Shown here piece by piece: positions 1 through 20,133 of a DNA stretch of 22,854 bases (its first letter is position 1; each line of letters opens with the position of its first letter). Below the pieces are notes generated by a model. That model saw only the letters and a list, made by a program, of their open reading frames with translations, made no database searches and was not told where the DNA came from. The stretch is from a virus (taxonomy: Duplodnaviria; Heunggongvirae; Uroviricota; Caudoviricetes). The stretch lies in the IMG/VR virus record IMGVR_UViG_644736359_000002. One strand, given 5' to 3'. The position numbers and the translations under genes are program-made.

Positions 1-1164
1 TTACGCCTTCTTTATATCCTCCATAATTCCAGAGTGGGACATATTTGGGACATTATCACCAAAAATGTCGTCTATTTTCCTCGCATGCTCTGTCAAATGA
101 TTAGGCGCAAGGTGAGCATACCTACGAACCATTTCTATGGACTCCCATCCGCCCATTTCCTGAAGCACTGATAATGGGACGCCTGACTGAATCAGCCAGC
201 TTGCCCAGGTGTGTCTGAGGTCATGGAAACGGAAATCTTCAATTCCTGCACGACGACAAGCTGATAGCCATGATGTCTTGCTGTCGATGCGCATCTTCCT
301 GACCGCAGGCGTTGATGTTCCATCTGCTCGCTTAGCCGCCTTGGTATGTACAAACACCCATTTGTGATGCTTGCCTATTTGATCACGCAACACTTTACAG
401 GCGGTATCGTTCAGCGCCACACCAATGGCGCGGTTTGATTTGCTCTCTTCTGGATTCACCCAGGCAACTCGTCGCTGCATGTCGATTTGTTGCCATTCCA
501 GATTTATGATGTTCGACTTTCTCAGACCAGTTGCCAGCGCAAACTTGACGACAGATTTCAGTGGTTCGGGGCACTCATCAATAAGGCGTTTTGCTTCCTC
601 CTTTTCCAGCCATCTGACTCGCTTGTTTCTGACCGCTGGTATCTTGATGACAGGCGCTTTTTCCAGCCACTTCCAGTCGCGTTCTGCAGCACGGAGAATG
701 GCCTTTATCATGGCAAGATGCTTTGCCTTTGTCTGAGTTGGTACTGGCTTTGGTTCATAAACAGGCAGTTCTTTACCTTTCCTGATGGCGGCCTGAACTT
801 TCTGTTTCCATATTTCTTTCGTCTTTCTGTTATGCATTCTGCTTACAGCAGAGTAAATCTTTGCCTCCGAGATATCTTTAAGCCTTATACCCTCAAAATG
901 TTCAAGCCAGAACTCAATCCGGCTTTTATCTGAATCGAGAGATTTTTTATCAGCTTTTTCCTCAAGCCATCTTAGGCAGGCCTCTTCAAAAGTGACATCA
1001 GGTAAATCCCCTAGCTTTTCTACTCGCCAGAGTTCTGCTTTTCGCTTGTCGTGCAACTCCTGAGCTTGCCGCTTGTCCTTTGTGCCAAGAGATTCCTTAA
1101 TTCGTTTCCCGCCCGGGAGCGAATACGAGGCATACCATATTTCATTTCTGCGGAAGAGTGACAT
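1..1164 (-). CDS. intD: Phage tyrosine integrase (DLP12-type); stop codon at window position 1, so the attachment site lies just outside the window
   Basis: 387-aa ORF, ATG at 1162-1164; C-terminal catalytic region with HDLRHTWAS...VLQEMGGW...RRYAH typical of tyrosine recombinases; N-terminus recalled as DLP12 IntD. Confidence 0.93.
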
Positions 1165-1391
1165 TTTCTTTCCTCTGTTATGCCATCACCCGCGCTCACC
1201 TGGACAGTATGCAGCGGAGACTGAAGCGCCGCAATGCAGGCTTGCCGTGTTGTGAGGTAAGGAGATTTTGGCTTGGTTGGATCTTTACGTGTTGCCTGTA
1301 GGCGGCCTGTTCGTATCCAGTTGGTGGCGGTTGGTCTGGATATCTTAAGAAACTGACAGGCCTCATCGAGTGTGAGGCTGTATGATTCCAT
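1020..1391 (-). CDS. xisD: Excisionase (P22 Xis-like), 123 aa from the ATG at 1389-1391; overlaps the integrase 5' end by 144 nt
   Basis: Internal Met of ORF 1020..1421 with upstream GAGGT; N-terminus [31 protein letters not shown] resembles P22-type Xis as recalled; position immediately upstream of int. Confidence 0.7.
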
Positions 1392-1641
1392 GGTTACCTC
1401 TGCTTTTTGAACGCATGTCACGTAACTTCTTAATGTGTTCTGCCGTTTCGATCTCTTCTGCTATCCGATCTGCATCAGCTTTATTCACAGGTTCAAAGTC
1501 ATGATTAAAGCGGAACATGCTGGCGATACATGTTCTGCCTTTTCGGATGTAGTGAACTTTGTTGTGGGTAGAACGCAGGATTTTGCAGGGAGTGCCGTGG
1601 TGGTCGACGTACCAGGTGTTAGGCAAAATGATTCTGAACAT
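1363..1641 (-). CDS. Hypothetical phage early-left protein (92 aa)
   Basis: ORF with ATG at 1639-1641 preceded by GAGGTG; same strand and tight spacing with xis; no family recognised. Confidence 0.5.
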   Translation of the reverse strand: MFRIILPNTWYVDHHGTPCKILRSTHNKVHYIRKGRTCIASMFRFNHDFEPVNKADADRIAEEIETAEHIKKLRDMRSKSRGNHGIIQPHTR

Positions 1642-1688
1642 TTTTACACCTCAGTTGGACGATGTTGAAATTTGCTGCTTTGAGGCCA

Positions 1689-1907
1689 TCACAATCCCCA
1701 TTGTTTGTTCTTAAGTTCGATCTCCTCCTGGCAGCTTGCACAAGTCCGACAACCCTGAACGGCCAGGCGTCTTCGTTCATCTATGGGATCGCCACACTCA
1801 CAACAATGAGTGGCAGATATAACCTGGTGGTTCAGACGACGCATTTTTATTGCTGTATTGCGCTGTAATTCTTCGATTTCTGATGCTGAATCAATGATGT
1901 CTGCCAT
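1689..1907 (-). CDS. TraR/DksA-family C4 zinc-finger protein (72 aa)
   Basis: CCECGDPIDERRRLAVQGCRTCASCQE has the CxxC...CxxC spacing of TraR/DksA zinc fingers; ATG at 1905-1907. Confidence 0.75.
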   Translation of the reverse strand: MADIIDSASEIEELQRNTAIKMRRLNHQVISATHCCECGDPIDERRRLAVQGCRTCASCQEEIELKNKQWGL

Positions 1908-2005
1908 CTTCCATTAATCCCTGAATTGTTGGTTAATACGCTTGAGGGTGAATGCGAATAATAAAAAAGGAGCCTGTAGCTCCCTGATGATTTTGCTTTT
2001 CATGT

Positions 2006-2221
2006 TCATCGCTCCTTAAAGACGCCGTTTAACATGCCGATCGCCAGGCTTAAATGAGTCGGTGTGAATCCCATCAGCGTTACCGTTTCGCGGTGCTTCT
2101 TCAGTACGCTACGGCAAATGTCATCGACGTTTTTATCCGGAAACTGCTGTCTGGCTTTTTTGATTTCAGAATTAGCCTGACGGGCTATGCTGCGAAGGGC
2201 GTTTTCCTGCTGAGGTGTCAT
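2006..2221 (-). CDS. Hypothetical small phage protein (71 aa if started at the ATG at 2219-2221; track ORF extends to a TTG at 2320)
   Basis: ORF on - strand; ATG at 2219-2221 has GGGA 8 nt upstream; alternative ATG at 2285-2287 has no good RBS; start uncertain. Confidence 0.45.
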   Translation of the reverse strand: MTPQQENALRSIARQANSEIKKARQQFPDKNVDDICRSVLKKHRETVTLMGFTPTHLSLAIGMLNGVFKER

Positions 2222-2297
2222 TGAACAAGTCCCATGTCGGCAAGCATAAGCACACAGAATATGAAGCCCGCTGCCAGAAAAATGCATTCCGTGGTTG

Positions 2298-2663
2298 TCA
2301 TGCAGCCTCCCGACGGGCAAGAATCCTTGAGCCGAACGCCATCAACTCTCCACGATCAACGGTCGTAAAGTGGCAGTGTGTACGGGGGTATGGGTGCCAG
2401 ATAATGAGCATCGAGCCTTTATTATTTCCACTGACGTGTTTCCCGGTGAGTGGGTTAATAAATGCCAGTCGTCCTGCCGTGATGAATCTGACCTCACTGG
2501 CGGTTTGTATCGCTTCATGAAACCATCCGACAGATGTGTCAGCAGGTAATAACATTACACATCCCACACTGCTGAATTTGTTTTCAGTGGCTGCCTTTTT
2601 CACAAAAGGGGAAATATTGCTGTATGGTGGATTCAACCAGACATAACCAGAGGCATATCCCAT
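2298..2663 (-). pseudogene. 5'-truncated phage N6-adenine DNA methyltransferase (Dam-like) fragment
   Basis: Translation starts MGYASGYVWLNPPYS: the NPPY catalytic motif sits 10 residues from the apparent start and the upstream AdoMet-binding region is absent; no RBS before the ATG at 2661-2663; abuts the P fragment on the opposite strand. Confidence 0.7.
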
Positions 2664-2667
2664 TGCT

Positions 2668-2910
2668 TACTGGTTGGTTACCAACTTGTACCAGAACATG
2701 CGGGCCAATGCGCTGACTGACGCGGAATTACGGCGCAAGGCTGCCGATGAACTGTCCTGTATGACCGCGCGAATTAACCGTGGTGAGGCGATACCTGAAC
2801 CAGTAAAACAACTTCCTGTCATGGGCGGTAGACCTCTAAATCGTGCACAGGCTCTGGCGAAGATCGCAGAAATCAAAGCTAAGTTCGGACTGAAAGGATC
2901 AAGTGTATGA
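2668..2910 (+). pseudogene. C-terminal fragment of lambda-type replication protein P (no native start)
   Basis: Frame reads YWLVTNLYQNMRANALTDAELRRKAADEL...KAKFGLKGSSV, recalled as the extreme C-terminus of lambda P; frame opens at 2668 directly at the junction with the methyltransferase fragment. Confidence 0.8.
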
Positions 2911-3209
2911 CGGGCAAAGAGGCAATTATTCATTACCTGGGGACGCATAAGAGCTTCTGTGCACAGGACGTTGCCGCGGTAACAGGTGCAACCGTAACCA
3001 GCATAAATCAGGCTGCGGCTAAAATGGCGCGGGCAGGAATCCTGGTCGTTGATGGTAAGGTCTGGCGAACGGTGTATTACCGGTTCGCTACCAGAGAAGA
3101 ACGGGAAGGAAAGGTGAGCACGAATCTGATTTTTAAGGAGTGTCGCCAGAGTGCCGCGATGAAACGGGTACTGAGGGTATATAAAAGAACATCAATGGGA
3201 ACACAATGA
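2907..3209 (+). CDS. renD: Ren-like protein (lambda Ren homologue), 100 aa
   Basis: MTGKEAIIHYLGTH...VTSINQAAAKMARAG...VYYRFATREEREGK recalled as lambda Ren; ATG overlaps the P-fragment stop in ATGA. Confidence 0.8.
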   Translation: MTGKEAIIHYLGTHKSFCAQDVAAVTGATVTSINQAAAKMARAGILVVDGKVWRTVYYRFATREEREGKVSTNLIFKECRQSAAMKRVLRVYKRTSMGTQ

Positions 3210-3276
3210 TGAAACAGGTGAGTTGAGTTCAAACTGTAGTACAATTCTCTCCAGTTTGAACAGGAAAGAATATGCT

Positions 3277-3609
3277 ATGAACCCTTATATTTATCTTGGT
3301 GGTGCAATACTTGCAGAGGTCATTGGTACAACCTTAATGAAGTTTTCAGAAGGTTTTACACGGTTATGGCCATCTGTTGGTACAATTATTTGTTATTGTG
3401 CATCATTCTGGTTATTAGCTCAGACGCTGGCTTATATTCCTACAGGGATTGCTTATGGTATCTGGTCAGGAGTCGGTATTGTCCTGATTAGCTTACTGTT
3501 ATGGGGATTTTTCGGCCAACGGCTGGACCTGCCAGCCATTATAGGCATGATGTTGATTTGTGCCGGTGTGTTGGTTATTAATTTATTGTCACGAAGCACA
3601 CCACATTAA
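3277..3609 (+). CDS. emrE: Small multidrug resistance efflux transporter EmrE (110 aa)
   Basis: MNPYIYLGGAILAEVIGTTLMKFSEGFTRLWPS... recognised as EmrE (SMR family, four TM segments); the track ORF begins at an upstream TTG, the ATG at 3277 gives the canonical length. Confidence 0.93.
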   Translation: MNPYIYLGGAILAEVIGTTLMKFSEGFTRLWPSVGTIICYCASFWLLAQTLAYIPTGIAYGIWSGVGIVLISLLLWGFFGQRLDLPAIIGMMLICAGVLVINLLSRSTPH

Positions 3610-3639
3610 AATAATTTGTTTCTAAACGACTAAAATATG

Positions 3640-3675
3640 GAGGCTCTTATATTTATATGAGCCTCGTTTTATGCT
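3640..3675 (+). terminator. Candidate intrinsic terminator downstream of emrE
   Basis: Inverted repeat GAGGCTC (3640-3646) / GAGCCTC (3659-3665) followed by GTTTTATGCTTTTTG. Confidence 0.5.
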
Positions 3676-3863
3676 TTTTGTTAATGTCTTTATTTTTTAT
3701 GTATTCTTTTGTGCTTTCAAGATTATGGCGTAAGAAAATTGCAATACGATTATTGTTGTATATTCAAGATAATGTGACCTTAATTGTCTTTTTAAATAAA
3801 AATTAAACAAAAATTATATCCCACCACTAAGGTTTATAAAAGCATACGTTAGCAGGTGTCACC

Positions 3864-5390
3864 ATGAAAAAAGCCATAGCATATATGCGATTTTCATCAC
3901 CAGGTCAGATGTCTGGCGACTCATTAAACCGACAGAGAAGACTTATTGCTGAATGGTTAAAGGTAAATAGTGATTATTATCTTGATACCATAACATATGA
4001 AGATTTAGGATTAAGTGCATTCAAAGGAAAGCATGCACAATCAGGAGCTTTTTCGGAATTTTTAGATGCTATAGAGCATGGTTATATATTGCCAGGAACT
4101 ACATTGTTAGTTGAAAGTCTGGACAGACTTTCAAGAGAAAAAGTCGGTGAAGCGATTGAACGTCTGAAATTGATTTTGAATCACGGTATTGATGTTATAA
4201 CTCTTTGCGACAATACAGTCTATAATATTGACTCTTTGAATGAGCCATATTCATTAATAAAAGCCATACTTATAGCACAAAGGGCAAATGAAGAAAGCGA
4301 GATAAAGTCAAGTCGGGTTAAATTATCATGGAAGAAAAAACGGCAGGATGCACTGGAATCAGGTACGATTATGACGGCGTCTTGTCCGAGATGGCTCTCC
4401 TTAGATGACAAAAGAACGGCTTTTGTTCCAGACCCCGACAGGGTGAAAACTATTGAGCTAATTTTTAAACTCAGGATGGAAAGGCGCTCATTGAATGCAA
4501 TAGCCAAGTATTTAAATGATCATGCTGTAAAGAATTTCTCAGGAAAAGAAAGTGCATGGGGACCTTCTGTAATTGAAAAATTATTAGCGAATAAAGCTCT
4601 GATAGGTATATGCGTACCTTCATATCGTGCAAGAGGGAAAGGGATAAGTGAAATCGCTGGCTATTATCCCAGAGTCATATCAGATGATTTGTTTTACGCT
4701 GTACAGGAAATTCGGTTGGCACCTTTTGGTATTAGCAATAGTAGCAAGAATCCTATGCTAATAAATCTACTTCGAACAGTTATGAAGTGTGAGGCTTGTG
4801 GTAATACCATGATTGTTCATGCGGTATCTGGAAGTTTGCATGGCTATTATGTTTGTCCGATGAGAAGATTACATCGATGTGACAGGCCATCAATAAAAAG
4901 AGATTTGGTTGATTATAATATCATTAATGAATTGCTTTTTAATTGTAGCAAAATTCAACCAGTTGAAAACAAGAAAGATGCTAATGAAACTTTAGAGTTA
5001 AAAATTATTGAGCTTCAGATGAAAATTAATAATTTAATCGTTGCATTGTCTGTCGCGCCTGAAGTTACCGCTATAGCAGAGAAAATAAGACTATTAGATA
5101 AGGAATTACGAAGGGCTTCGGTATCATTGAAAACTTTGAAGAGTAAAGGTGTAAATTCATTCAGTGATTTTTATGCTATTGACTTAACCAGTAAAAATGG
5201 ACGAGAGTTATGCCGTACACTTGCCTATAAAACATTCGAAAAAATCATAATTAATACGGATAATAAAACCTGTGATATCTATTTTATGAATGGCATTGTT
5301 TTTAAACACTATCCTTTAATGAAAGTAATATCCGCCCAGCAGGCGATAAGTGCTCTCAAATATATGGTTGATGGTGAGATTTATTTCTAA
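3864..5390 (+). CDS. ybcK: Large serine recombinase (resolvase-type N-terminal catalytic domain plus recombinase and zinc-ribbon-like regions), 508 aa
   Basis: N-terminus MKKAIAYMRFSSPGQ...SLNRQRR...LLVESLDRLSR matches the serine-recombinase catalytic motif (nucleophile Ser in RFSS); cysteine-rich segment CEACGN...YYVCP...HRCDRP; AGGTG RBS 5 nt before the ATG at 3864; AT-rich codon usage. Confidence 0.88.
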   Translation: MKKAIAYMRFSSPGQMSGDSLNRQRRLIAEWLKVNSDYYLDTITYEDLGLSAFKGKHAQSGAFSEFLDAIEHGYILPGTTLLVESLDRLSREKVGEAIERLKLILNHGIDVITLCDNTVYNIDSLNEPYSLIKAILIAQRANEESEIKSSRVKLSWKKKRQDALESGTIMTASCPRWLSLDDKRTAFVPDPDRVKTIELIFKLRMERRSLNAIAKYLNDHAVKNFSGKESAWGPSVIEKLLANKALIGICVPSYRARGKGISEIAGYYPRVISDDLFYAVQEIRLAPFGISNSSKNPMLINLLRTVMKCEACGNTMIVHAVSGSLHGYYVCPMRRLHRCDRPSIKRDLVDYNIINELLFNCSKIQPVENKKDANETLELKIIELQMKINNLIVALSVAPEVTAIAEKIRLLDKELRRASVSLKTLKSKGVNSFSDFYAIDLTSKNGRELCRTLAYKTFEKIIINTDNKTCDIYFMNGIVFKHYPLMKVISAQQAISALKYMVDGEIYF

Positions 5391-5588
5391 ATAATGATCT
5401 CGGATTTTAAGTTATGCTATGGTGATAAAGTGCAAGACAGAATTAATTATCTTTAACGAAACTTAATGGGTAATTACTTTGTTTGCTCCCACAAGCGAGT
5501 TTTGTACGGCTGTATTGGGGTAGTAAATGAGCTATACAATCTTAATCATTTGTTAGGTGAGAACTCTTGGTCGCAGATTCAAATACTG

Positions 5589-5638
5589 AAAATACGTGAC
5601 AAATTATTATGAGCAAAATGGTGTATGTCACGTATTTT
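5589..5638. promoter_or_regulatory. 50-bp palindromic site: perfect 13-bp inverted repeat AAAATACGTGACA / TGTCACGTATTTT separated by 24 bp
   Basis: Read directly: left arm 5589-5601, right arm 5626-5638; lies in the ybcK-ybcL intergenic region. Confidence 0.6.
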
Positions 5639-5854
5639 GAATGGTAGGTTAAAAAATAACACCGACTTTCGTAGGTATTACTAATAATAAAGCAGAGTTT
5701 TTAGATAGTATCAATGTGCTTTGTGTATATTGTGGCAAATAATTGGGTTGGGGGTACAATTGTGATTGCTTTTGCATGAACATTGCGCCTTTATGCATAA
5801 TGAGATAAAGGAATATCAAATAAAATAACGATAGGTCATAACAAAGAGGTTTTT

Positions 5855-6406
5855 ATGAAAACACTTATCGTTTCAACTGTATTGGCATTCATAACATTTT
5901 CTGCGCAGGCTGCAGCATTTCAGGTCACTAGTAATGAAATAAAAACAGGAGAGCAACTTACAACGTCTCATGTCTTTTCTGGATTTGGGTGTGAAGGTGG
6001 TAATACATCGCCCTCATTAACCTGGTCTGGTGTTCCTGAAGGTACCAAAAGCTTTGCCGTAACTGTATATGATCCAGATGCACCTACAGGCAGTGGTTGG
6101 TGGCATTGGACTGTTGTTAATATTCCAGCAACAGTAACATATTTGCCCGTTGATGCAGGGAGACGTGATGGAACAAAACTGCCGACTGGTGCTGTTCAAG
6201 GCCGAAATGATTTTGGCTATGCTGGGTTTGGTGGCGCATGTCCTCCTAAAGGAGATAAACCACATCATTACCAGTTTAAAGTATGGGCTCTAAAAACTGA
6301 AAAGATTCCTGTAGATTCTAACTCCAGCGGAGCGTTAGTTGGTTATATGCTTAATGCTAATAAAATCGCAACCGCTGAGATAACACCAGTTTATGAGATA
6401 AAGTAG
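5855..6406 (+). CDS. ybcL: Periplasmic PEBP/RKIP-family protein with signal peptide (183 aa)
   Basis: Signal peptide MKTLIVSTVLAFITFSAQA; PEBP-like motifs (DPDAP, GWWHW, PPKGDKPHHY); recalled as YbcL. Confidence 0.88.
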   Translation: MKTLIVSTVLAFITFSAQAAAFQVTSNEIKTGEQLTTSHVFSGFGCEGGNTSPSLTWSGVPEGTKSFAVTVYDPDAPTGSGWWHWTVVNIPATVTYLPVDAGRRDGTKLPTGAVQGRNDFGYAGFGGACPPKGDKPHHYQFKVWALKTEKIPVDSNSSGALVGYMLNANKIATAEITPVYEIK

Positions 6407-6415
6407 GGTGAGAGT

Positions 6416-7213
6416 ATGCTGGCAAGAGGTAAGACTAACTTAAAGATCGAAGAAATACGGATGCATAAACATCATGAGATTCATAGGGTTAAGCCTCTTA
6501 TGCCAGCTTTGTGTCGTATCCGTCAGGGAAAGAAAGTTATCAATTGGGAGACGCATACTTTAACTGTTGATAATAATCAAATAATATTATTTCCTTGTGG
6601 TTATGAATTTTATATTGAGAATTATCCTGAAGCAGGGCTTTATCTTGCAGAAATGCTTTACTTACCCATTGATTTAATTGAGAGTTTCCAAAAACTTTAT
6701 ACGGTAACTGATCAAATACGTAACAAAACAAGTTTCTTTTTACCTCAGAATCCTGAGTTAATATATTGTTGGGAGCAACTAAAAACATCTGTTTCCCGAG
6801 GCTTCTCAACTAAAATTCAGGAGCACTTAGCAATGGGCGTTCTACTTTCGTTAGGAGTGAATCATGTTAATCATTTACTTTTATCATATAGTAAACAATC
6901 ATTGATAAGTCGTTGTTATAACCTGCTGCTATCCGAACCCGGCACAAAATGGACAGCAAACAAGGTTGCTCGATATCTCTACATTTCTGTTTCTACATTA
7001 CATCGCCGTCTAGCAAGCGAGGGGGTAAGTTTCCAAAGTATACTGGACGATGTGAGGTTAAATAATGCGTTGTCTGCTATACAAACGACGGTAAAACCTA
7101 TAAGCGAGATTGCCAGAGAAAATGGTTATAAGTGTCCTTCTCGTTTTACTGAAAGATTTCATAATCGTTTTAATATAACACCAAGAGAGATAAGAAAAGC
7201 TTCCAGAGAGTAA
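6416..7213 (+). CDS. ybcM: AraC/XylS-family transcriptional regulator (265 aa)
   Basis: C-terminal AraC-type HTH ([21 protein letters not shown]...[30 protein letters not shown]); starts 10 nt after ybcL stop with GGGTGAGAG RBS. Confidence 0.88.
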
Positions 7214-7277
7214 AAGTGTTTTAAGAAGGAGCAATTCTATCGATTTTGATTTTGGGAAATCAACACGGCATAATTAT

Positions 7278-7306
7278 GTCACCGGAGCCTGAACAACTCC
7301 GGTGAC
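7278..7306 (+). terminator. Perfect 10-bp stem hairpin downstream of ybcM (candidate terminator or island-boundary element)
   Basis: GTCACCGGAG (7278-7287) / CTCCGGTGAC (7297-7306), 9-nt loop; weak U-tract (TTCTGCGC), so terminator function is uncertain. Confidence 0.35.
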
Positions 7307-7427
7307 TTCTGCGCTAAACGGGGACGTTTATGCGCACATACAATCCAAACTCTCTTCTCCCTTCACAGATGCAGAAATGCACCTGCAATTCTTTGCATCT
7401 AGCGTTTGACCTCTGCGGAGGTGAAGC

Positions 7428-7883
7428 GTGAACCTCTCACAAGACGGCATCAAATTACATCGCGGCAACTTCACCGCTATCGGTCGGCAGATCCAGCCTT
7501 ATCTGGAGGAGGGCAAATGCTTTCGCATGGTGCTTAAACCGTGGCGTGAGAAACGCAGTCTTTCCCAGAATGCACTCAGCCACATGTGGTACAGCGAAAT
7601 CAGTGAATACCTCATCAGCAGGGGTAAAACGTTCGCCACTCCAGCTTGGGTAAAAGATGCTCTCAAACACACATATCTCGGTTATGAAACCAAAGACCTG
7701 GTTGATGTCGTAACCGGTGATATCACCACTATCCAGTCGTTACGCCATACCTCCGACCTTGATACCGGAGAGATGTATGTCTTCCTGTGTAAGGTTGAAG
7801 CCTGGGCGATGAATATTGGCTGCCACCTGACTATTCCGCAGAGCTGCGAGTTCCAGCTGCTGCGTGATAAGCAGGAGGCGTAA
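7428..7883 (+). CDS. ybcN: YbcN-type DNA-binding (base-flipping) protein of the Nin region, 151 aa
   Basis: GTG start with GGAGGTG RBS; sequence recalled as DLP12 YbcN; followed by overlapping ninE/ybcO/rusA. Confidence 0.8.
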
Positions 7884-8053
7884 TGGCTACACCGCTTATT
7901 CGTGTCATGAACGGACACATCTACAAAGTACCAAATCGTCGTAAGCGTAAGCCTGAGCTGAAACCATCCGAAATACCAACACTGCTCGGATATACCGCCA
8001 GCCTGGTTGATAAAAAATGGTTGCGACTGGCAGCAAGGAGGAATCATGGCTGA
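7883..8053 (+). CDS. ninE: NinE-like small protein (56 aa); below the ORF-track size cutoff
   Basis: Translated by hand: [56 protein letters not shown]; start overlaps ybcN stop (TAATG), stop overlaps ybcO start (ATGGCTGA). Confidence 0.75.
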   Translation: MATPLIRVMNGHIYKVPNRRKRKPELKPSEIPTLLGYTASLVDKKWLRLAARRNHG

Positions 8054-8336
8054 TTTGAGAAAAGCAGCGCGTGGTCGGGAATGCCAGGTAAGAATCCCTG
8101 GCGTATGTAATGGCAATCCTGAAACGTCTGTACTGGCACATATCCGGCTGGCTGGATTGTGCGGTACCGGTATCAAACCGCCAGACCTGATTGCCACCAT
8201 TGCATGTTCTGCCTGTCACGACGAGATCGACCGTCGCACGCATTTTGTTGACGCTGGATATGCAAAAGAATGCGCGCTGGAAGGTATGGCGAGAACGCAG
8301 GTTATCTGGCTGAAAGAGGGGGTAATTAAGGCGTGA
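8046..8336 (+). CDS. ybcO: YbcO (DUF1364-type cysteine-rich putative nuclease), 96 aa from the ATG at 8046
   Basis: [23 protein letters not shown]...[10 protein letters not shown]; AGGAGG RBS; the track ORF starts at an upstream in-frame codon. Confidence 0.82.
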
Positions 8337-8695
8337 ATACCTACAATATCACATTACCCTGGCCGCCGAGCAATAATCGCTATTACCGCCATAATCGCGG
8401 GCGCACGCACATCAGCGCAGAGGGGCAGGCATACCGCGAAAACGTCGCCCGAATCATTAAAAACGCAATGCTGGATATCGGCCTGGCTATGCCTGTGAAA
8501 ATCCGCATTGAGTGTCACATGCCGGATCGCCGTCGCCGTGACCTGGATAATCTACAAAAGGCCGCTTTTGACGCACTCACCAAAGCAGGTTTCTGGCTGG
8601 ATGATGCTCAGGTCGTTGATTACCGCGTTGTGAAGATGCCGGTTGTCAAAGGTGGAAAGCTGGAACTGACCATCACTGAACAGGGAGATGAATGA
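8333..8695 (+). CDS. rusA: RusA Holliday-junction resolvase (120 aa)
   Basis: [26 protein letters not shown]...[25 protein letters not shown] recalled as RusA; GTG start overlapping ybcO stop. Confidence 0.88.
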
Positions 8696-8832
8696 TGTTT
8701 GAGTTTTATATGGCAGAACTTCTTCGCCACCGCTGGATGCGCCTGCGCTTATATCGTTTCCCCGGTTCTGTTTTGACCGATTACCGAATACTGAAGAATT
8801 ACGCCAAAACACTGACAGGAGCAGGAGTATGA
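8692..8832 (+). CDS. ylcG: YlcG-like small protein (46 aa); below the ORF-track cutoff
   Basis: Hand translation [46 protein letters not shown]; ATG overlaps rusA stop (ATGA). Confidence 0.6.
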
Positions 8833-8917
8833 AGTCAGAGATAACAATCAACTAATACTGTTTTGTTGATTTTTGCTTGTAATTGGCGTTCTGGTCTGAG
8901 TTTTGTGGAGTAAGTTG

Positions 8918-9301
8918 ATGCGTGATATTCAGATGGTTCTTGAGCGTTGGGGAGCGTGGGCGGCTAATAATCATGAAGATGTGACCTGGTCGTCCATTGC
9001 CGCCGGTTTTAAGGGATTAATTCCTTCAAAAGTAAAATCTCGCCCACAATGTTGTGACGATGACGCGATGATCATTTGCGGGTGCATGGCCCGTCTGAAA
9101 AAGAACAACAGCGATTTGCATGATTTATTAGTAGATTATTATGTAGTCGGTATGACATTCATGTCACTGGCAGGTAAGCATTGCTGCTCTGATGGTTATA
9201 TCGGGAAAAGGTTACAGAAGGCTGAGGGCATAATTGAAGGGATGTTAATGGCATTAGATATCCGGTTAGAGATGGATATCGTTGTTAATAACTCTAATTA
9301 A
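8918..9301 (+). CDS. quuD: Late-gene antiterminator Q (phage 21/82-type), 127 aa
   Basis: [22 protein letters not shown]...[16 protein letters not shown] recalled as DLP12 QuuD; GGAG RBS before the ATG at 8918. Confidence 0.88.
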
Positions 9302-9481: not shown

Positions 9482-9994
9482 GTAATCAGATTAGAACTGA
9501 TACACCAGACCTACAGCGACGATGTCGTCGGTATCAATACCAGCTGTTTTGGTAAACTTACTATCGTCAATTAAGTTGATTTTGTAATCAACAAAAGTGG
9601 ACATGTTTTTATTAAAGTAGTAAGTAGCACCGACATCGACATACTTGACTAAGTCTCGGTCACCATGAACACCAAGGTCTTTACCTTTTGACTGAAGGTA
9701 AGCAACAGATGGTCGCAGACCGAAGTCAAACTGATATTGTGCTACTGCTTCAAAGTTTTGTGCTTTGTTTGCAATATGGTTATTACCAAAAACGGTCATA
9801 TTCTGAGTTTCAGAATATGTGGTAGCCAGATAGATATTGTTCGCATCATATTTCAGGCCTGCAGCCCATACTTCCGCATTTTTGCCGGAGGCATTGAATT
9901 TGCTCTTACCATAGGCGACCTGACCGTCAGTGCGATCTGATTTAGCATAGGTTGCACCCACGCCGAATCCTTCATACTCATAAGTAGTGGAGAA

Positions 9995-10003: not shown

Positions 10004-10018
10004 GGTAATGACTCCAAC

Positions 10019-10522
10019 TTATTGATAGTGTTTTATGTTCAGATAATGCCCGATGACTTTGTCATGCAGCTCCACCGATTTTGAGAACGACAGCGACTTC
10101 CGTCCCAGCCGTGCCAGGTGCTGCCTCAGATTCAGGTTATGCCGCTCAATTCGCTGCGTATATCGCTTGCTGATTACGTGCAGCTTTCCCTTCAGGCGGG
10201 ATTCATACAGCGGCCAGCCATCCGTCATCCATATCACCACGTCAAAGGGTGACAGCAGGCTCATAAGACGCCCCAGCGTCGCCATAGTGCGTTCACCGAA
10301 TACGTGCGCAACAACCGTCTTCCGGAGCCTGTCATACGCGTAAAACAGCCAGCGCTGGCGCGATTTAGCCCCGACATAGCCCCACTGTTCGTCCATTTCC
10401 GCGCAGACGATGACGTCACTGCCCGGCTGTATGCGCGAGGTTACCGACTGCGGCCTGAGTTTTTTAAGTGACGTAAAATCGTGTTGAGGCCAACGCCCAT
10501 AATGCGGGCAGTTGCCCGGCAT
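10019..10522 (-). CDS. insB: IS1 InsB reading frame (transposase made as InsAB' by frameshifting)
   Basis: 167-aa ORF overlapping the insA 3' end, matching recalled IS1 InsB. Confidence 0.88.
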
Positions 10523-10716
10523 CCAACGCCATTCATGGCCATATCAATGATTTTCTGGTGCGTACCGGGTTGAGAAGCGGTGTAAGTGAACTGCAGTTGC
10601 CATGTTTTACGGCAGTGAGAGCAGAGATAGCGCTGATGTCCGGCGGTGCTTTTGCCGTTACGCACCACCCCGTCAGTAGCTGAACAGGAGGGACAGCTGA
10701 TAGAAACAGAAGCCAC
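10441..10716 (-). CDS. insA: IS1 InsA (91 aa)
   Basis: [43 protein letters not shown] recalled as IS1 InsA. Confidence 0.9.
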
Positions 10717-10771
10717 TGGAGCACCTCAAAAACACCATCATACACTAAATCAGTAAGTTGGCAGCATCACC

Positions 10772-10780
10772 ACCGAAACC
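10772..10780. repeat. 9-bp target-site duplication ACCGAAACC (right copy)
   Basis: Identical 9-mer immediately flanks both IS1 ends. Confidence 0.9.
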
Positions 10781-11938
10781 ATCACCATTGGCTTCAGTTA
10801 CGTCAGTGCGGTCATTTTTACCCTGATACTGAGCAGCAAAGTTCAGGCCATCGACCAGACCAAAGAAGTCGTTGTTACGATAGGTTGCAACACCAGTGGT
10901 GCGACCAGTCATGAACACATCTGTTTGGGTCCAGGTATCGCCACCGAATTCTGGCAGAACGTCAGTCCACGCACCGATGTCGTATGCTACACCGTAGTTA
11001 CGGCCGTAATCGATTGAGCCGTAGTCACCGAATTTCAGGCCTGCAAATGCAAGACGGGTTTTGTCTTTGGAGGAACCTTGAGATTCAGCGCGGTTGCCTT
11101 TGAATTCATATTCCCACTGACCGAAACCAGTCAGTTGATCGTTGATTTGGGTTTCACCTTTGAAGCCAAGACGGGCATAAGTAGTATCACCATCATCTGC
11201 ATCGTTAGAGGAAAAGTAGTGCTTGGCATTAACTTTCCCGTACAGATCCAGCTTGTTACTGTCTTTATTATAAATTTCAGCTGCCTGAGCAGACATCGCC
11301 ATCAGTACTGATGCAGCTACAGCAGAAATTGCCACTGTTAATTTTTTCATCGTGAGCCCTTTTTTTTGAACTATTATTAAAAAATGATGTCACTGCGCGA
11401 TAAATATTCATCTAATCAATGTGATTATTTCAAGATGTAAGTTTTAGTTTCTCATTTAATTTGTGAAGTAGATCTCTATTTTTATCTGAACTTTTTCTAT
11501 CGAAACCTATTTATGGCTCTTATTTGAACAAAAATAAACCTATTAGCTAATTTATATTAATGGCTGTTATTTATGGGGGTTCTATAATTCAGTGGTTTAA
11601 TTTAAATCAACTAAAAATAACGCCGGAAATTATTTATTGGTTATTTGTTGAGGTTTTCTTATATATTTGTGGTGGTGTTTTGAACACTCGGTAGCATTCT
11701 CATAAATATCATTCAGTGGTTTACGTACGTAAAAAATTGGTTATGCTGTTAAGAGTGGTTACTTCGTCACACAGCTTAAACCCGCCGTCGAGCTGGTTTT
11801 TCCATTTTTTGAGTCTCGATATTAGCTGATAACTCAATACCTGAGTTATTCACTGACTCCGAGTCTGTTACGTTTCTGCTTTTTTGCGATACGTTGTATT
11901 CCCTCAATTTACACCCGCTTTGTCTGCGAGGTGGGGTT

Positions 11939-14377: not shown

Positions 14378-14953
14378 ATGGAAGTCAACAAAAAGCAGCT
14401 GGCTGACATTTTCGGTGCGAGTATCCGTACCATTCAGAACTGGCAGGAACAGGGAATGCCCGTTCTGCGAGGCGGTGGCAAGGGTAATGAGGTGCTTTAT
14501 GACTCTGCCGCCGTTATAAGATGGTATGCCGAAAGGGATGCTGAAATTGAGAACGAAAAGCTGCGCCGGGAAGTTGAAGAACTGCGGCAGGCCAGCGAGA
14601 CAGATCTCCAGCCAGGGACTATTGAGTACGAACGCCATCGACTTACGCGTGCGCAGGCCGACGCACAGGAGCTGAAAAATGCCAGAGACTCCGCTGAAGT
14701 GGTGGAAACCGCATTCTGTACTTTCGTGCTGTCGCGGATCGCAGGTGAAATTGCCAGTATTCTCGACGGGATCCCCCTGTCGGTGCAGCGGCGTTTTCCG
14801 GAACTGGAAAACCGACATGTTGATTTCCTGAAACGGGATATCATCAAAGCCATGAACAAAGCAGCCGCGCTGGATGAACTGATACCCGAACACGGCACTG
14901 GTCGGCGTGCAGGTGGACTCGGAGCAGTTCGGCAGCCAGCAGGTGAGCCGTAA
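14378..14953 (+). CDS. nohD: Terminase small subunit Nu1 homologue with altered C-terminus (reads out of frame into J sequence after the deletion junction)
   Basis: [43 protein letters not shown]... recalled as near-identical to lambda Nu1 up to ...AAALDELIP; the final ~20 residues ([21 protein letters not shown]) are not Nu1-like. Confidence 0.8.
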
Positions 14954-17729
14954 TTATCATCTTCGCGGGCGCATTCTGCAGGTGCCGTCGAACTATAACC
15001 CGCAGACGCGGCAATACAGCGGTATCTGGGACGGAACGTTTAAGCCGGCATACAGCAACAACCCGGCCTGGTGTCTGTGGGATATGCTGACCCACCCGCG
15101 CTACGGCATGGGGAAACGTCTTGGTGCGGCGGATGTGGATAAATGGGCGCTGTATGTCATCGGCCAGTACTGCGACCAGTCAGTGCCGGACGGTTTTGGC
15201 GGCACGGAGCCGCGCATCACCTGTAATGCCTACCTGACCACGCAGCGTAAGGCGTGGGATGTGCTCAGTGATTTCTGCTCGGCGATGCGCTGTATGCCGG
15301 TATGGAACGGGCAGACGCTGACGTTCGTGCAGGACCGACCATCAGATAAGGTGTGGACCTATAACCGCAGTAATGTGGTGATGCCGGATGATGGCGCGCC
15401 GTTCCGCTACAGCTTCAGCGCCCTGAAGGACCGCCATAATGCCGTTGAGGTGAACTGGATTGACCCGAATAACGGCTGGGAGACGGCGACAGAGCTTGTT
15501 GAAGATACGCAGGCCATTCTCCGTTACGGTCGTAACGTCACGAAGATGGATGCCTTTGGCTGTACCAGCCGGGGGCAGGCACACCGCGCCGGGCTGTGGC
15601 TGATTAAAACGGAGCTGCTGGAAACGCAGACCGTGGACTTCAGCGTGGGTGCCGAAGGGCTTCGCCATGTACCGGGCGATGTCATTGAAATCTGCGATGA
15701 TGACTATGCCGGTATCCGCACCGGCGGGCGCGTGCTGGCGGTAAACAGCCAGACCCGGACGCTGACGCTCGACCGTGAAATCACGCTGCCATCTTCCGGC
15801 ACCACGCTGATAAGCCTGGTTGACGGGCAGGGGAGTCCGGTCAGCGTGGAGGTTCAGTCCGTCACCGACGGCGTGAAGGTGAAAGTGAGCCGTGTTCCTG
15901 ACGGCGTTGCTGAATACAGCGTATGGGGGCTGAAGCTGCCGACGTTGCGCCAGCGCCTGTTCCGCTGCGTGAGTATCCGTGAGAACGACGACGGCACGTA
16001 TGCCATCACCGCCGTGCAGCATGTACCGGAAAAAGAGGCCATCGTGGATAACGGGGCGCACTTTGACGGCGACCAGAGCGGCACGGTAAATGGTGTCACG
16101 CCGCCAGCGGTGCAGCACCTGACCGCAGAAGTCACCGCAGACAGCGGGGAATACCAGGTGCTGGCCCGCTGGGATACGCCGAAGGTGGTGAAGGGCGTGA
16201 GCTTCCTGCTTCGCCTGACCGTGGCAGCGGATGACGGCCGTGAGCGACTGGTCAGCACGGCCCGGACGACGGAAACCACTTACCGCTTCACACAACTGGC
16301 TCTGGGGAACTACAGGCTGACAGTCCGGGCAGTAAATGCGTGGGGGCAGCAGGGCGAGCCGGCGTCGGTATCGTTCCGGATTGCCGCACCGGCAGCGCCG
16401 TCGCAGATTGAGCTGACACCGGGGTATTTTCAGATAACCGCCACGCCGCATCTTGCGGTTTATGATCCGACGGTACAGTTTGAGTTCTGGTTCTCGGAAA
16501 AGCGGATTGCGGATATCAGGCAGGTTGAAACCACAGCACGCTATCTTGGCACGGCGCTGTACTGGATAGCCGCCAGTATCAATATCAAACCGGGCCATGA
16601 TTATTATTTTTACATCCGCAGTGTGAACACCGTTGGCAAATCGGCATTCGTGGAGGCTGTTGGCCAGCCGAGTGATGATGCATCCGGCTATCTGAATTTT
16701 TTCAAAGGAGAGATAGGGAAAACCCATCTGGCTCAGGAGTTGTGGACGCAGATTGATAACGGTCAGCTTGCGCCTGACCTGGCGGAAATCAGAACGTCCA
16801 TCACGGATGTCAGTAATGAAATCACGCAGACCGTCAATAAGAAACTGGAAGACCAGAGTGCGGCAATCCAGCAGATACAGAAGGTTCAGGTTGATACAAA
16901 TAATAACCTGAACAGCATGTGGGCTGTGAAGCTGCAGCAGATGCAGGACGGACGCCTTTATATCGCGGGTATTGGTGCCGGTATTGAGAATACCCCTGAC
17001 GGTATGCAGAGTCAGGTGCTGCTGGCGGCGGACAGGATTGCGATGATTAATCCTGCGAATGGCAACACAAAGCCGATGTTTGTTGGTCAGGGCGATCAGA
17101 TATTCATGAACGAAGTGTTCCTGAAATATCTGACGGCTCCCACCATTACCAGCGGCGGTAATCCTCCGGCATTTTCCCTGACACCGGACGGGCGGCTGAC
17201 GGCGAAAAATGCCGATATTAGCGGTAACGTGAATGCGAACTCCGGGACGCTCAACAACGTCACGATTAACGAGAACTGCCGGGTTCTGGGAAAACTGTCC
17301 GCGAACCAGATTGAAGGCGATCTCGTTAAAACAGTGGGCAAAGCTTTCCCCCGGGACTCCCGTGCACCGGAGCGGTGGCCATCAGGGACCATTACCGTCA
17401 GGGTTTATGACGATCAGCCGTTTGACCGGCAAATTGTTATTCCGGCGGTGGCATTCAGTGGCGCTAAACATGAGCAAGATCATACTGATATCTACTCCTC
17501 ATGCCGTCTGATAGTACGAAAAAACGGTGCTGAAATTTATAACCGAACGGCTCTGGATAATACGCTGATATATACGGGTGTTATTGATATGCCTGCAGGC
17601 AGTGGTGTAATGACACTGGAATTTTCTGTATCGGCATGGCTGGTAAATGGCTGGTATCCCACAGCAAGTATCAGCGATTTGCTGGTTGTGGTGATGAAGA
17701 AAGCCACTGCAGGCATCATGATTAGCTGA
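14883..17729 (+). pseudogene. N-terminally truncated tail tip/host-specificity protein J (lambda J from about residue 190 to the C-terminus), no native start or RBS
   Basis: Frame opens right after a stop at 14880-14882 and reads [41 protein letters not shown]..., recalled as internal lambda J sequence; the last ~150 residues differ from lambda J. Confidence 0.85.
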
Positions 17730-17774: not shown

Positions 17775-17787
17775 TTGTGGAGTGAAT

Positions 17788-20133
17788 ATGGCAGTACAGA
17801 TTTCAGGTGTGCTGAAAGATGGTGCGGGAAAACCAATACAGAACTGCACTATTCAACTGAAGGCAAAGCGTAACAGCACCACGGTACTGGTGAACACGGT
17901 GGCCTCTGAAAATCCGGATGAAGCCGGGCGTTACAGCATGGATGTTGAGCATGGCCAGTACAGCGTCACCCTGCTGGTTGAAGGTTTTCCGCCTTCACAT
18001 GCCGGAACCATTACCGTCTATGAAGGTTCCAGACCAGGTACGCTGAATGATTTTCTCGGTGCCATGACGGAAGATGATGTCATGCCGGAGGCATTGCGTC
18101 GTTTTGAGGCAATGGTGGAAGAAGCGGCACGCAACGCCGAAGCCGCCTCTCAGAGCGCAGCGGCGGCAAAGAAATCCGAAACTGCAGCGGCATCATCGAA
18201 GAACGCGGCGAAAACCTCAGAAACGAATGCAGCTAACAGCGCACAGGCGGCAGCGTCCTCGCAGACTGCATCGGCAAACTCCGCGACAGCAGCCAAAAAA
18301 TCAGAAACCAACGCGAAAAACAGCGAGACAGCCGCAAAGACGAGCGAAACCAACGCAAAGTCCAGCCAGACGGCAGCGAAAACCAGCGAAACGAATGCCA
18401 AAGCCAGTGAAACTGCGGCGAAAAATAGCCAGAATGCAGCAGCCGAAAGCGAGAGCGCGGCAGCCGGTTCTGCGACTGCAGCAGCTGGATCAGCAACTGC
18501 TGCGGCTAACAGCCAGAAAGCAGCGAAGACGAGCGAAACTAACGCAAAGTCCAGCCAGACGGCAGCGAAGACCAGCGAAACAAATGCCAAAGCCAGCGAA
18601 ACTGCGGCGAAAAGCAGTCAGGATGCAGCAGCCGAAAGCGAGAGTGCTGCAGCTGGTTCTGCAAGTGCGGCGGCTGCTTCTGCCACTGCATCAGCAAACA
18701 GTCAAAAAGCTGCAAAAACCAGTGAAACCAATGCAAAGACAAGCGAGACTGCAGCGGCGAACTCGGCGCAAGCATCGGCAGCAAGCCAGACAGCAGCTAA
18801 AGCAAGTGAGGATGCAGCCAGAGAGTATGCAAGCCAGGCAGCAGAGCCGTATAAATATGTCTTACAGCCACTGCCTGATGTGTGGATACCGTTTAACGAT
18901 TCACTGGATATGCTTGCTGGCTTTTCGCCTGGTTATAAGCAAATAACCGTAGGTGATGATGTTATTAAAATGCCATCCGATAAGGTTGTTAGCTTCAAAC
19001 GCGCATCAGGTGCAACATACATTAATAAATCAGGTGTATTAACCGTTGCTGAAGTTGACGAACCGCGATTTGAACGAGAAGGTTTGCTGATTGAAGGACA
19101 GAGAACAAACTATTTCAGAAATTCAAATACACCAGAAGCATGGAATAACACGGGTAGTGTGTCTGTTGAGTCGTTCGACAGTGATAAGGGGTTTAACTAT
19201 GGAAGGATAACTGTTATTAATGAAAATCCGACAGCACAAGGATATCAGGCAATTGCTGTAAACACGAATGATGCTTACACCTGCCCGGCAGGTTCTTATA
19301 CGACGATATCGTGTCTGACGAAAAGTGATAATTCCCGGTGTCGTGCAAGGTTCGGAAAAATGTCTGATAATGGTGCGTTTGTTTTTCATTCAGATGCAGT
19401 TCTGGATCCTGTTACGGGAAATGTTGTTCATGGAAATAATGTGACGGTGACGGCAGAAAGAGTCGGTGAATGGTGGTTGTTTACCGCCACTCTTTTTGCA
19501 GATGCGGAAATGATAATCAGCTCAAGATTTGAAATCCTGGCGATGCCTGGAATCAGTATTATCCCCAATGGCTCTACGTTAGATATTGCGATGCCTCAGG
19601 CGGAGATTGGGTCGTACAGGACGTCATTTATCATTACTGAAGGGGCTCCTGGCACTCGCTCCAGCGACATGGTGACAATACCTGTAAGAAACAATATTCA
19701 CCGATTACCATTCAGTGCTCTTGTTGAAGTTAATAAAAACTGGGATATCCCTCCCAGCAAATCACCATTAATCTTTAATGTTAAAGATTATCAGGAAAAT
19801 GGTCTGTTCACGCATGGATTCCGTGGTAATAATTTCTCTGATGCCGGTTCTCCTTTTATTTCTATGGGAGGGTGTAATAAATATGTGGCAACAACCCAGA
19901 GGAAAATCATTTCAGGCTTCCGTTGTGGCGCTGATGGAGATGTTCAGGCCGTATGTAATGGTGAATTATCTGTTGCGGCAAAAACAACATGGACTTCAAT
20001 TGTTCCACGGGCAGTATTGCGAATTGGAGGGCAGGGCACTAATGGGGAGTATCATCTTTTTGGTCATATCCGTAATCTGCGTATCTGGCATAAAGAATTA
20101 ACTGATGCGCAAATGGGGGAGAGTATTAAATGA
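17788..20133 (+). CDS. Side tail fibre protein, mosaic: lambda Stf-like N-terminus, Ala/Ser/Thr-rich repeat region, C-terminal domain with a LamG/concanavalin-like signature
   Basis: MAVQISGVLKDGAGKPIQNCTIQLKAKRNSTTV... resembles the lambda Stf N-terminus as recalled; GGAG RBS before the ATG at 17788; C-terminus ...NGEYHLFGHIRNLRIWHKELTDAQM resembles the LamG-type domain tail motif. Confidence 0.8.
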   Translation: MAVQISGVLKDGAGKPIQNCTIQLKAKRNSTTVLVNTVASENPDEAGRYSMDVEHGQYSVTLLVEGFPPSHAGTITVYEGSRPGTLNDFLGAMTEDDVMPEALRRFEAMVEEAARNAEAASQSAAAAKKSETAAASSKNAAKTSETNAANSAQAAASSQTASANSATAAKKSETNAKNSETAAKTSETNAKSSQTAAKTSETNAKASETAAKNSQNAAAESESAAAGSATAAAGSATAAANSQKAAKTSETNAKSSQTAAKTSETNAKASETAAKSSQDAAAESESAAAGSASAAAASATASANSQKAAKTSETNAKTSETAAANSAQASAASQTAAKASEDAAREYASQAAEPYKYVLQPLPDVWIPFNDSLDMLAGFSPGYKQITVGDDVIKMPSDKVVSFKRASGATYINKSGVLTVAEVDEPRFEREGLLIEGQRTNYFRNSNTPEAWNNTGSVSVESFDSDKGFNYGRITVINENPTAQGYQAIAVNTNDAYTCPAGSYTTISCLTKSDNSRCRARFGKMSDNGAFVFHSDAVLDPVTGNVVHGNNVTVTAERVGEWWLFTATLFADAEMIISSRFEILAMPGISIIPNGSTLDIAMPQAEIGSYRTSFIITEGAPGTRSSDMVTIPVRNNIHRLPFSALVEVNKNWDIPPSKSPLIFNVKDYQENGLFTHGFRGNNFSDAGSPFISMGGCNKYVATTQRKIISGFRCGADGDVQAVCNGELSVAAKTTWTSIVPRAVLRIGGQGTNGEYHLFGHIRNLRIWHKELTDAQMGESIK
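18352..18729 (+). repeat. Tandem duplication, 2 x 189 bp (63 codons), within the tail-fibre gene
   Basis: Unit beginning AACGCAAAGTCCAGCCAGACGGCAGCG recurs at 18352 and 18541; the copies encode near-identical TNAKSSQTAAKTSETNAKASETAAK... segments. Confidence 0.8.

Follow-up and report, generated by a model that had tools for sequence, protein, structure and literature searches.

We examined an AT-rich block of accessory genes, including the large serine recombinase gene ybcK, in a 22,854-nt viral sequence (Caudoviricetes; IMG/VR record IMGVR_UViG_644736359_000002); the whole of this stretch is referred to below as the window. The window is the lambdoid prophage DLP12 of E. coli, in its B/C-type form. 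Over positions 2600–8100 it matches E. coli C at 100% identity and K-12 at 99.5%, the latter with an additional IS3. In the RefSeq annotation, the identical stretch reads tRNA-Arg, intD, a methyltransferase fragment, a P fragment, ren, emrE and ylcJ on the left, then ybcK, ybcL, ybcM, a 33-amino-acid open reading frame (ORF), ybcN, ninE, ybcO, rusA, ylcG, quuD and a porin gene on the right. Our ORF list and Pfam scan agreed with this order. The AT-rich cargo consists of emrE, ylcJ, ybcK, ybcL and ybcM, bounded by ren and the ninB-like ybcN. An earlier reading of the DNA (the original prediction) named emrE, ybcK, ybcL and ybcM correctly and overlooked ylcJ. The features of the locus, with the module to which we assign each cargo gene, are as follows.

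intD, 1–1164, minus strand: tyrosine integrase (PF00589)
ren, 2907–3209, plus strand: left neighbour of the AT-rich block
Variant ren 3' end, 3170–3209, plus strand: left edge of the variable slot; homology to L006, a relative without emrE and ybcK, stops at 3169
emrE upstream region, 3210–3276, plus strand: holds an inverted repeat with 13-nt arms (3227–3261)
emrE, 3277–3609, plus strand: SMR multidrug efflux pump, module 1 (PF00893, E = 2.6e-33; phrog_1395, category "moron")
Terminator-like hairpin and U-run 3' of emrE, 3640–3668, plus strand: −13.6 kcal/mol, z = −3.2, then GUUUUAUGCUUUUUG
ylcJ, 3657–3806, plus strand: small hydrophobic ORF of 49 amino acids, within the leader of ybcK (PF23688:YlcJ)
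ybcK, 3864–5390, plus strand: large serine recombinase of 508 amino acids with Resolvase, Recombinase and Zn_ribbon_recom domains, module 2
ybcK 3' flank, 5391–5475, plus strand: end of module 2, conserved but diverged in all ybcK-bearing phages
DLP12-specific spacer, 5476–5699, plus strand: holds a perfect 13-bp inverted repeat (5589–5601 and 5626–5638)
Module 3 upstream region, 5700–5854, plus strand: precedes ybcL
ybcL, 5855–6406, plus strand: PEBP family (PBP/PEBP Pfam match), module 3
ybcM, 6416–7213, plus strand: AraC-family regulator (HTH_18), module 3
Conserved phage backbone closing the slot, 7244–7427, plus strand: homology resumes at 7244–7246 in every relative, whatever its cargo
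TTGATT-N6-AATCAA palindrome, also readable as a TTGATT-17-CATAAT promoter-like site, 7246–7274, plus strand: in the backbone
Hairpin with a 10-bp stem, 7278–7306, plus strand: −18.3 kcal/mol, z = −4.8, read from the fold of 7275–7320
ORF of 33 amino acids, 7330–7431, plus strand: after the hairpin and before ybcN
ybcN, 7428–7883: ninB-like (phrog_72 NinB/Orf)

Base composition sets the block apart from its surroundings. Windowed G+C (GC) content was 0.46–0.51 up to position 3250, fell to 0.32–0.43 over 3251–7250 and then returned to 0.49–0.52. The block itself (3210–7243) is 36.3% GC, compared with 48.0% for positions 1–3209 and 48.4% for 7244–9300, a gap that we put at about 15 standard errors (binomial standard error of ∼0.008 over 4 kb). 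GC at third codon positions tells the same story: 0.26–0.35 for emrE, ybcK, ybcL and ybcM, against 0.52–0.61 for ren, ybcN and ninE–rusA. The claim that the block is more AT-rich than its flanks was therefore borne out. Of its proposed limits, 3210–7427, the right one failed, as the cargo ends at ∼7243; the remaining stretch (7244–7427) is 45% GC and is phage backbone conserved in all relatives.

The slot opens at a joint (3169/3170) that lies 40 bp inside the ren 3' end, and the C terminus of Ren differs between phages that bear emrE and ybcK and those that lack them. The inverted repeat upstream of emrE folds weakly (−13.4 kcal/mol, z = −1.9), and promoter-like matches did not exceed chance (17 found, 15.4 expected from shuffles). 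PF23688:YlcJ was found in every E. coli ybcK context. Downstream of ybcK, BLAST homology to L003, L004 and L005 (three prophages of the comparison) stops at 5431, and a weaker alignment reaches the TATCTTKAACGAA motif (∼5475). The spacer that follows has no similarity to the post-ybcK DNA of other phages and occurs only in the 674 genomes where ybcK adjoins ybcL. The arms of its inverted repeat, AAAATACGTGACA and TGTCACGTATTTT, are separated by a 24-nt gap and fold with z = −3.8.

We followed the distribution of the genes through 5,426 complete genomes of E. coli, together with phages on deposit and contigs from metagenomes. The full emrE-ylcJ-ybcK-ybcL-ybcM arrangement was present in 668 genomes. 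ybcK occurred in 1,426, once or twice per genome, and about half of these lacked ybcL-ybcM. A junction joining emrE directly to ybcL, with no ybcK, was found in 2,626 genomes at the fliE-yedK locus. This locus holds a decayed prophage in which ybcL-ybcM directly follows emrE and which retains 7244–7430 and the porin gene; its ybcL-ybcM module (5700–7243) is 89–97% identical to that of the window, and it lacks the spacer. The only ybcK-less emrE-ybcL junction is the one in this diverged remnant (90–96% identity). The spread of emrE, ybcL and ybcM does not depend on ybcK.

The ren-emrE-ylcJ-ybcK stretch is kept at 95–100% identity up to position 5431 in prophages at other attachment sites, and emrE-ylcJ-ybcK is shared by L003 (O157, integrated at icd), L004, L005 and L007. 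The order P-ren-emrE-YlcJ-YbcK was seen in all ten non-redundant contexts of the protein cluster at 97% identity. The emrE-ylcJ-ybcK module is present too in the deposited phages 4A7, 1W, Turner and PhiR34_1; the identity of YbcK is 96–100% in the infectious phages 4A7, 1W and Turner and 100% in PhiR34_1. Phage 4A7 has its own integrase, excisionase and an icd fragment, the O157 prophage likewise carries its own Int/Xis, and DLP12 its own integrase.

What follows ybcK is variable, ybcL-ybcM being one of at least five alternative cargos. The window has ybcL-ybcM, O157-type prophages (L003) only a 280-bp remnant, L004 and phage 4A7 an esterase gene on the opposite strand, and L005, L007 and phage Turner a truncated P22AR_C gene with hypothetical genes. 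Relatives without emrE and ybcK hold other genes between backbone points 3169 and 7244: a YajG lipoprotein gene in L006, two small ORFs in L023, and an ant-like gene with a HEPN gene in L025. The slot is therefore generically variable, and the view of the block as accessory DNA between ren and ninB, not ancestral in all relatives, was upheld. The block is not a single element: its three modules are inherited separately, and emrE-ylcJ-ybcK, ybcL-ybcM and the spacer differ in distribution and do not form a discrete unit with constant ends. Elsewhere in this slot, L021 and L022 carry a 4.2-kb inverse autotransporter gene with an esterase gene, and L016 a SIR2_2 gene; together with the HEPN-domain gene of L025, the autotransporter and SIR2_2 genes may represent virulence or defence cargo.

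Several joints preserve leftovers of earlier neighbours. A P22AR_C ORF directly follows ybcK in seven of the ten non-redundant contexts. This 107-amino-acid ORF is the C-terminal half (residues 106–197) of a 202-amino-acid gene that is intact in L025, and the nucleotide homology begins ∼112 bp past the ybcK stop codon. Shorter P22AR_C remnants persist in the O157-type (L003) and 4A7-type (L004) prophages; none was found in the post-ybcK DNA of DLP12. L004 (5507–5544) and phage 4A7 also contain a diverged 38-bp remnant of a second emrE 3' end, whose alignment score in L004 was reached by none of 500 shuffles. In both, a 240-bp P22AR_C remnant lies upstream of it, and it adjoins a hairpin by the convergent esterase gene that resembles a terminator but differs from the one after emrE (as seen in the sequence rather than by folding). 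This second emrE 3' end shows that the emrE 3' untranslated region (UTR) and putative terminator are part of the emrE module. A similar second emrE 3' end at ∼5560–5720 of the window was not significant and is real only in L004.

DLP12 and the fliE remnant differ by a 2,083-bp indel (3617–5699) that spans ybcK and is flanked only by AATAAT-type microhomology. We favour a deletion in the remnant as its origin, since ybcN-quuD and the remainder of the phage are missing from it too. E. coli HH45 (L116 6985–9138, fliE-yedK) has an emrE 99.3% identical and a ybcL-ybcM 96.9% identical to the window at a junction that still lacks ybcK, an arrangement that is evidence of gene conversion between the fliE remnant and phage alleles. 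Cut genes and leftovers of this kind look like scars that illegitimate or homeologous exchange between lambdoid phages would be expected to leave.

The reading that we find fairly probable in view of these observations is that three independently assorting morons are stacked, as a mosaic, in a hyper-variable ren-ninB slot within the early-right operon of DLP12/4A7-type lambdoid phages. Module 1 is emrE with a putative terminator of its own, module 2 ylcJ-ybcK, and module 3 ybcL-ybcM. The stack most likely grew through recurrent recombination, illegitimate or homeologous, between lambdoid phages and remnants of prophages, which is the usual way in which morons accrete. A single YbcK-catalyzed integration probably did not produce it. 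In these phages YbcK may hitch-hike as a selfish recombinase module, or else act as a second, accessory recombinase.

A recombination signature for YbcK was sought in DLP12. Direct or inverted repeats bracketing the block or any module were limited to short, chance-type matches, so the flanking repeats that the original prediction hoped alignment to relatives would define did not materialize, and neither did constant ends. Attachment (att)-like 46-bp dyads at the ybcK flanks and block ends of the window, L004 and L007 did not rise above the shuffle maximum. Synthetic empty-junction queries of the 5,426 genomes returned no emrE-to-backbone or ren-to-backbone empty site; the ren-ninB slot always holds something. 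The ybcK 5' and 3' flanks had no similarity to the flanks of homologues, bar one short, marginal match to L054. ybcK is not terminal but sits mid-block, with emrE on one side and ybcL-ybcM on the other.

Individual candidate sites were also discarded. The TTGATT-N6-AATCAA palindrome was considered as a recombinase site; it is the sole perfect match in the window and reads better as a conserved promoter/operator. A displaced ren 3' end, or ren-downstream sequence, after ybcK was not significant. The emrE stop codon was dropped as an attB because the adjoining 3' UTR and putative terminator are part of the emrE module. In every E. coli relative, the palindrome/promoter-like site, the hairpin and the 33-amino-acid ORF lie ahead of the ninB-like gene, and in L016 (9590–9640) the hairpin loop motif GCCTGAACAAC and a TTGACT-N17/18-CATAAT site likewise precede the DUF1367/ninB-like gene. 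The stretch may be a conserved regulatory leader; an Rfam search of the window gave no match.

YbcK itself is intact. Pfam identified the resolvase domain (PF00239, E = 5.5e-19), PF07508 and PF13408, confirming the predicted large serine recombinase in a prophage that already has a tyrosine integrase, and the protein matched phrog_95 "integrase" with E = 4e-120. Across 26 homologues, some only 28% identical, there is no variation at R9, S11, D87, R88 and R91 or at the zinc-ribbon cysteines C309, C312, C331 and C339; the nucleophilic serine has thus been kept, as the original prediction supposed. A YbcK family profile aligned with residues 37–316 of the A118 integrase (recombinase, zinc ribbon and coiled coil; E = 3.8e-15). 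A single-sequence search of the PDB with YbcK found no solved homologue, and defence-system models gave no match. The gene is full length in 1,399 genomes covering at least 80% of the query, and its E. coli alleles have a ratio of nonsynonymous to synonymous substitution rates (dN/dS) of 0.06–0.20 with dS up to 0.15, indicating strong purifying selection. YbcK looks functional because its catalytic residues are invariant and its dN/dS is low, and we infer from its sequence that it is a working site-specific recombinase.

A Rho/NusG-dependent terminator in the 5' UTR of ybcK reportedly keeps the gene silent in K-12 (PMC4150792), and its over-expression is reported to raise sabinene tolerance (PMC7181518). 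ybcK is one of 16 site-specific recombinase genes of K-12, and its loss had no effect on excision of an unrelated island (PMC5426353). Among 8 million papers searched, we found no report of recombination by YbcK, and literature on serine recombinases in the nin region was not found either. The gene is co-oriented with the early-right genes; silencing in K-12 would result from Rho-dependent termination in the leader, and on induction ybcK would be expected to be co-transcribed with its early-right neighbours.

YbcK homologues at 37–60% identity occur in Atlantibacter, Yersinia, Erwinia, Pantoea, Citrobacter, Ewingella and other Enterobacterales. In L011 the homologue is the last phage gene, 540 bp from the ssrA 3' end; in L017 it is the last phage gene before lepA; and in L013 it is the last one before a neighbouring P2-like prophage, behind the tail-fibre genes. 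This is the classical integrase position. Homologues in L015, L016 and L053 lie in the replication-to-nin interval of lambdoid prophages. In five of the 24 homologue loci, the recombinase and 1.4–10 kb of downstream cargo are enclosed by diverged, direct, partial copies of a gene. The enclosed segments measure 2.9–11.5 kb, with the recombinase at one end, and the copies (229–380 bp, 68–92% identity) are sharp at both edges:

L016, 9623–9851 and 12609–12831: 5' end of a DUF1367/ninB-like gene, 229 bp, 82% identity
L019, 9013–9332 and 12970–13291: pilV, 324 bp, 68% identity
L053, 9281–9657 and 12216–12592: lambda P, 380 bp, 75% identity
L054, 9273–9519 and 16149–16394: DUF2280, 248 bp, 84% identity
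L044, 8621–8996 and 20129–20503: 3' end of an AAA_25 gene and the DNA just downstream, 376 bp, 92% identity

The upstream copy stops 150–1005 bp ahead of the recombinase start in each case, and the cargo of L044 is metabolic. The homologue loci contain 14 dispersed repeats of 100 bp or more, and six of these bracket the recombinase. In related phages the DUF1367 gene is normally uninterrupted. No common motif was visible at the junctions of the five insertions, and neither att sites nor clean filled/empty pairs were found for them. The arrangement suggests that members of the family can sit at one end of inserted cargo segments, judging from the layout of the loci; such duplications could also arise when related carriers recombine unequally. 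A tentative extension, which we think unlikely, is that the family drives undescribed mini integrative cassettes inside temperate phages and plasmids, bringing morons along, and that the ylcJ-ybcK of DLP12 and 4A7 is a domesticated or decayed member. Such cassettes would insert into carrier genes (lambda P, DUF1367/ninB-like, DUF2280, pilV), and a diverged version of the disrupted segment, brought in with them, would stand in for it and keep the carrier viable.

Applied to DLP12, the same reasoning gives the strongest competitor to a mosaic of morons. ybcK and the DNA downstream of it (∼3617/3669–7243) would be a YbcK-mobilized cassette that delivered ybcL-ybcM into an emrE-bearing phage, sister cassettes having brought the esterase and other cargo. 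Four points weigh against the mosaic, the first two of them in favour of a cassette. The association of YbcK relatives with bracketed insertions is the first. Secondly, the variable cargo of E. coli phages lies 3' of ybcK, beginning ∼40–110 bp past the stop codon and ending at one constant point, the right joint at 7244, a layout also expected of a family of recombinase-plus-cargo cassettes. Thirdly, the negative att search is not decisive, as the sites of large serine recombinases are often only weakly symmetric. Finally, the 2,083-bp ybcK indel may be an insertion in DLP12 or a deletion in the remnant. The E. coli loci themselves, however, speak for other events. They contain no bracketing duplication, bar the 38-bp emrE remnant in L004; the P22AR_C remnants show cargo being replaced by deletion and substitution rather than by cassette exchange; ybcL-ybcM exists without ybcK; and no empty emrE-to-backbone site was present in the 5,426 genomes. 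There is no common right arm, because 5432–5699 is not shared by other ybcK loci, and all the E. coli contexts of ybcK examined are alike. We regard a cassette origin for this part of the DLP12 block as a minority possibility, with perhaps one chance in several of being correct.

YbcK might instead serve the phage rather than behave as a selfish or cassette recombinase: it could be a further integrase with a different bacterial site, or could resolve or invert phage DNA. Its near-identity among infectious phages, the low dN/dS, the co-orientation with the early-right operon and the homologues in integrase position (L011, L017 and L013) are all consistent with such a role. Against this, none of the E. 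coli prophages seen was permuted at ybcK or had host DNA adjoining the gene, there is no attP-like site by it, and no conserved partner gene, such as a possible directionality factor, accompanies the homologues. We consider a service role improbable.

The original prediction was that the whole of 3210–7427 is one nested integrative element brought by YbcK, with emrE, ybcL and ybcM as its cargo. Uniformly low GC, an intact recombinase and the existence of relatives without the block do fit this proposal, which is partly supported to that extent; the fixed ends, empty sites, att repeats and terminal recombinase of such an element were not found. The modules assort independently, ybcK is internal, 7244–7427 is backbone, neither repeats nor att-like sites accompany the block, and phages without it hold other cargo in the same slot, making a single element very improbable indeed. 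Least credible of all is the notion that ybcK is what remains of an earlier integrase, now dead and without function: its Rho/NusG silencing in K-12 (PMC4150792) and the lack of any reported recombination activity in the literature are outweighed by its full length in 1,399 genomes, invariant catalytic residues and cysteines, and strong purifying selection.

The mosaic organization can be compared with known systems. In the moron-accretion model for HK97- and HK022-type phages, morons accumulate in the lambdoid nin region. The DLP12 block resembles these in having genes of deviant composition between backbone genes, present or replaced according to the relative, in having a terminator-like hairpin of its own (after emrE) and in placing its joints at or in gene ends. 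It differs in that one module encodes a large serine recombinase, which is not a usual moron product. Large serine integrases (A118/LI, phiC31, Bxb1 and TP901-1) have the same three domains and coiled coil as YbcK, and some YbcK relatives occupy the prophage integrase position; the YbcK profile matched the C-terminal region of the A118 integrase with the E value of 3.8e-15 noted above, and phiC31 and TP901-1 weakly. Unlike them, ybcK lies mid-genome in the early-right operon of a phage with a separate tyrosine Int/Xis and has no identifiable attP or attB. Tn4451 (TnpX) and SCCmec (CcrAB) are small cargo elements moved by large serine recombinases, with defined ends and a short crossover site. 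The bracketed insertions of L016, L044, L053 and L054 are conceptually similar to these elements, which lack the diverged partial gene duplications of 229–380 bp seen in the YbcK-relative loci; in DLP12 nothing comparable was detectable. The invertases Pin (of e14), PinR and PinQ share the serine-recombinase catalytic domain and a home in K-12 cryptic prophages, and are listed with ybcK (PMC5426353). They are only ∼190 amino acids long, have neither a recombinase nor a zinc-ribbon domain, and act on tail-fibre segments, which they invert, whereas no invertible segment flanks ybcK.

Further features lie elsewhere in the window. At 2298–2910, a deletion joint abuts a truncated adenine-methyltransferase gene (minus strand) against a truncated P gene (plus strand), and the immunity and O genes are missing there; BL21(DE3) has a further 274-bp deletion that truncates ren. 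An IS1 copy (DDE_Tnp_IS1, 10004–10771) splits an nmpC/ompC-like porin gene into halves at 9491–9961 and 10745–11350; the gene is uninterrupted in E. coli C. Within 14378–17729, an ORF with tail-tip J domains begins at 14907, where the terminase small-subunit gene Nu1 (nohD) overlaps it. There are no head or tail-shaft genes between the two, and GC rises to 0.63; these genes appear to have been removed by an internal deletion. The tail-fibre gene at 17782–20133 contains tandem 21/42/189-nt repeats (18285–18756) with an extreme excess of A over T (AT skew up to 0.60). The right end of the prophage (21500–22854) is a second very AT-rich tract (GC 0.26–0.32) and includes another AraC-family gene (22105–22854), which we presume to be appY after its K-12 counterpart.

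The region is part of the reference E. coli genomes (K-12, B and C); the prophage and its genes have long been annotated, and much work has been done on emrE and ybcL. Textbooks already describe moron clusters in nin regions, and a composite moron reading adds little to that knowledge. The useful outcome is that the boundaries of the modules are defined and that emrE, ybcL and ybcM are found to spread independently of ybcK. To judge from its sequence, YbcK is intact and belongs to a known class of enzymes; the mid-genome position of its gene is unusual and conserved, and it is kept by infectious phages that have an integrase of their own. If the bracketed insertions do reflect YbcK activity, they would represent a route by which accessory genes move between phages, and the family could provide a new set of recombinase tools.

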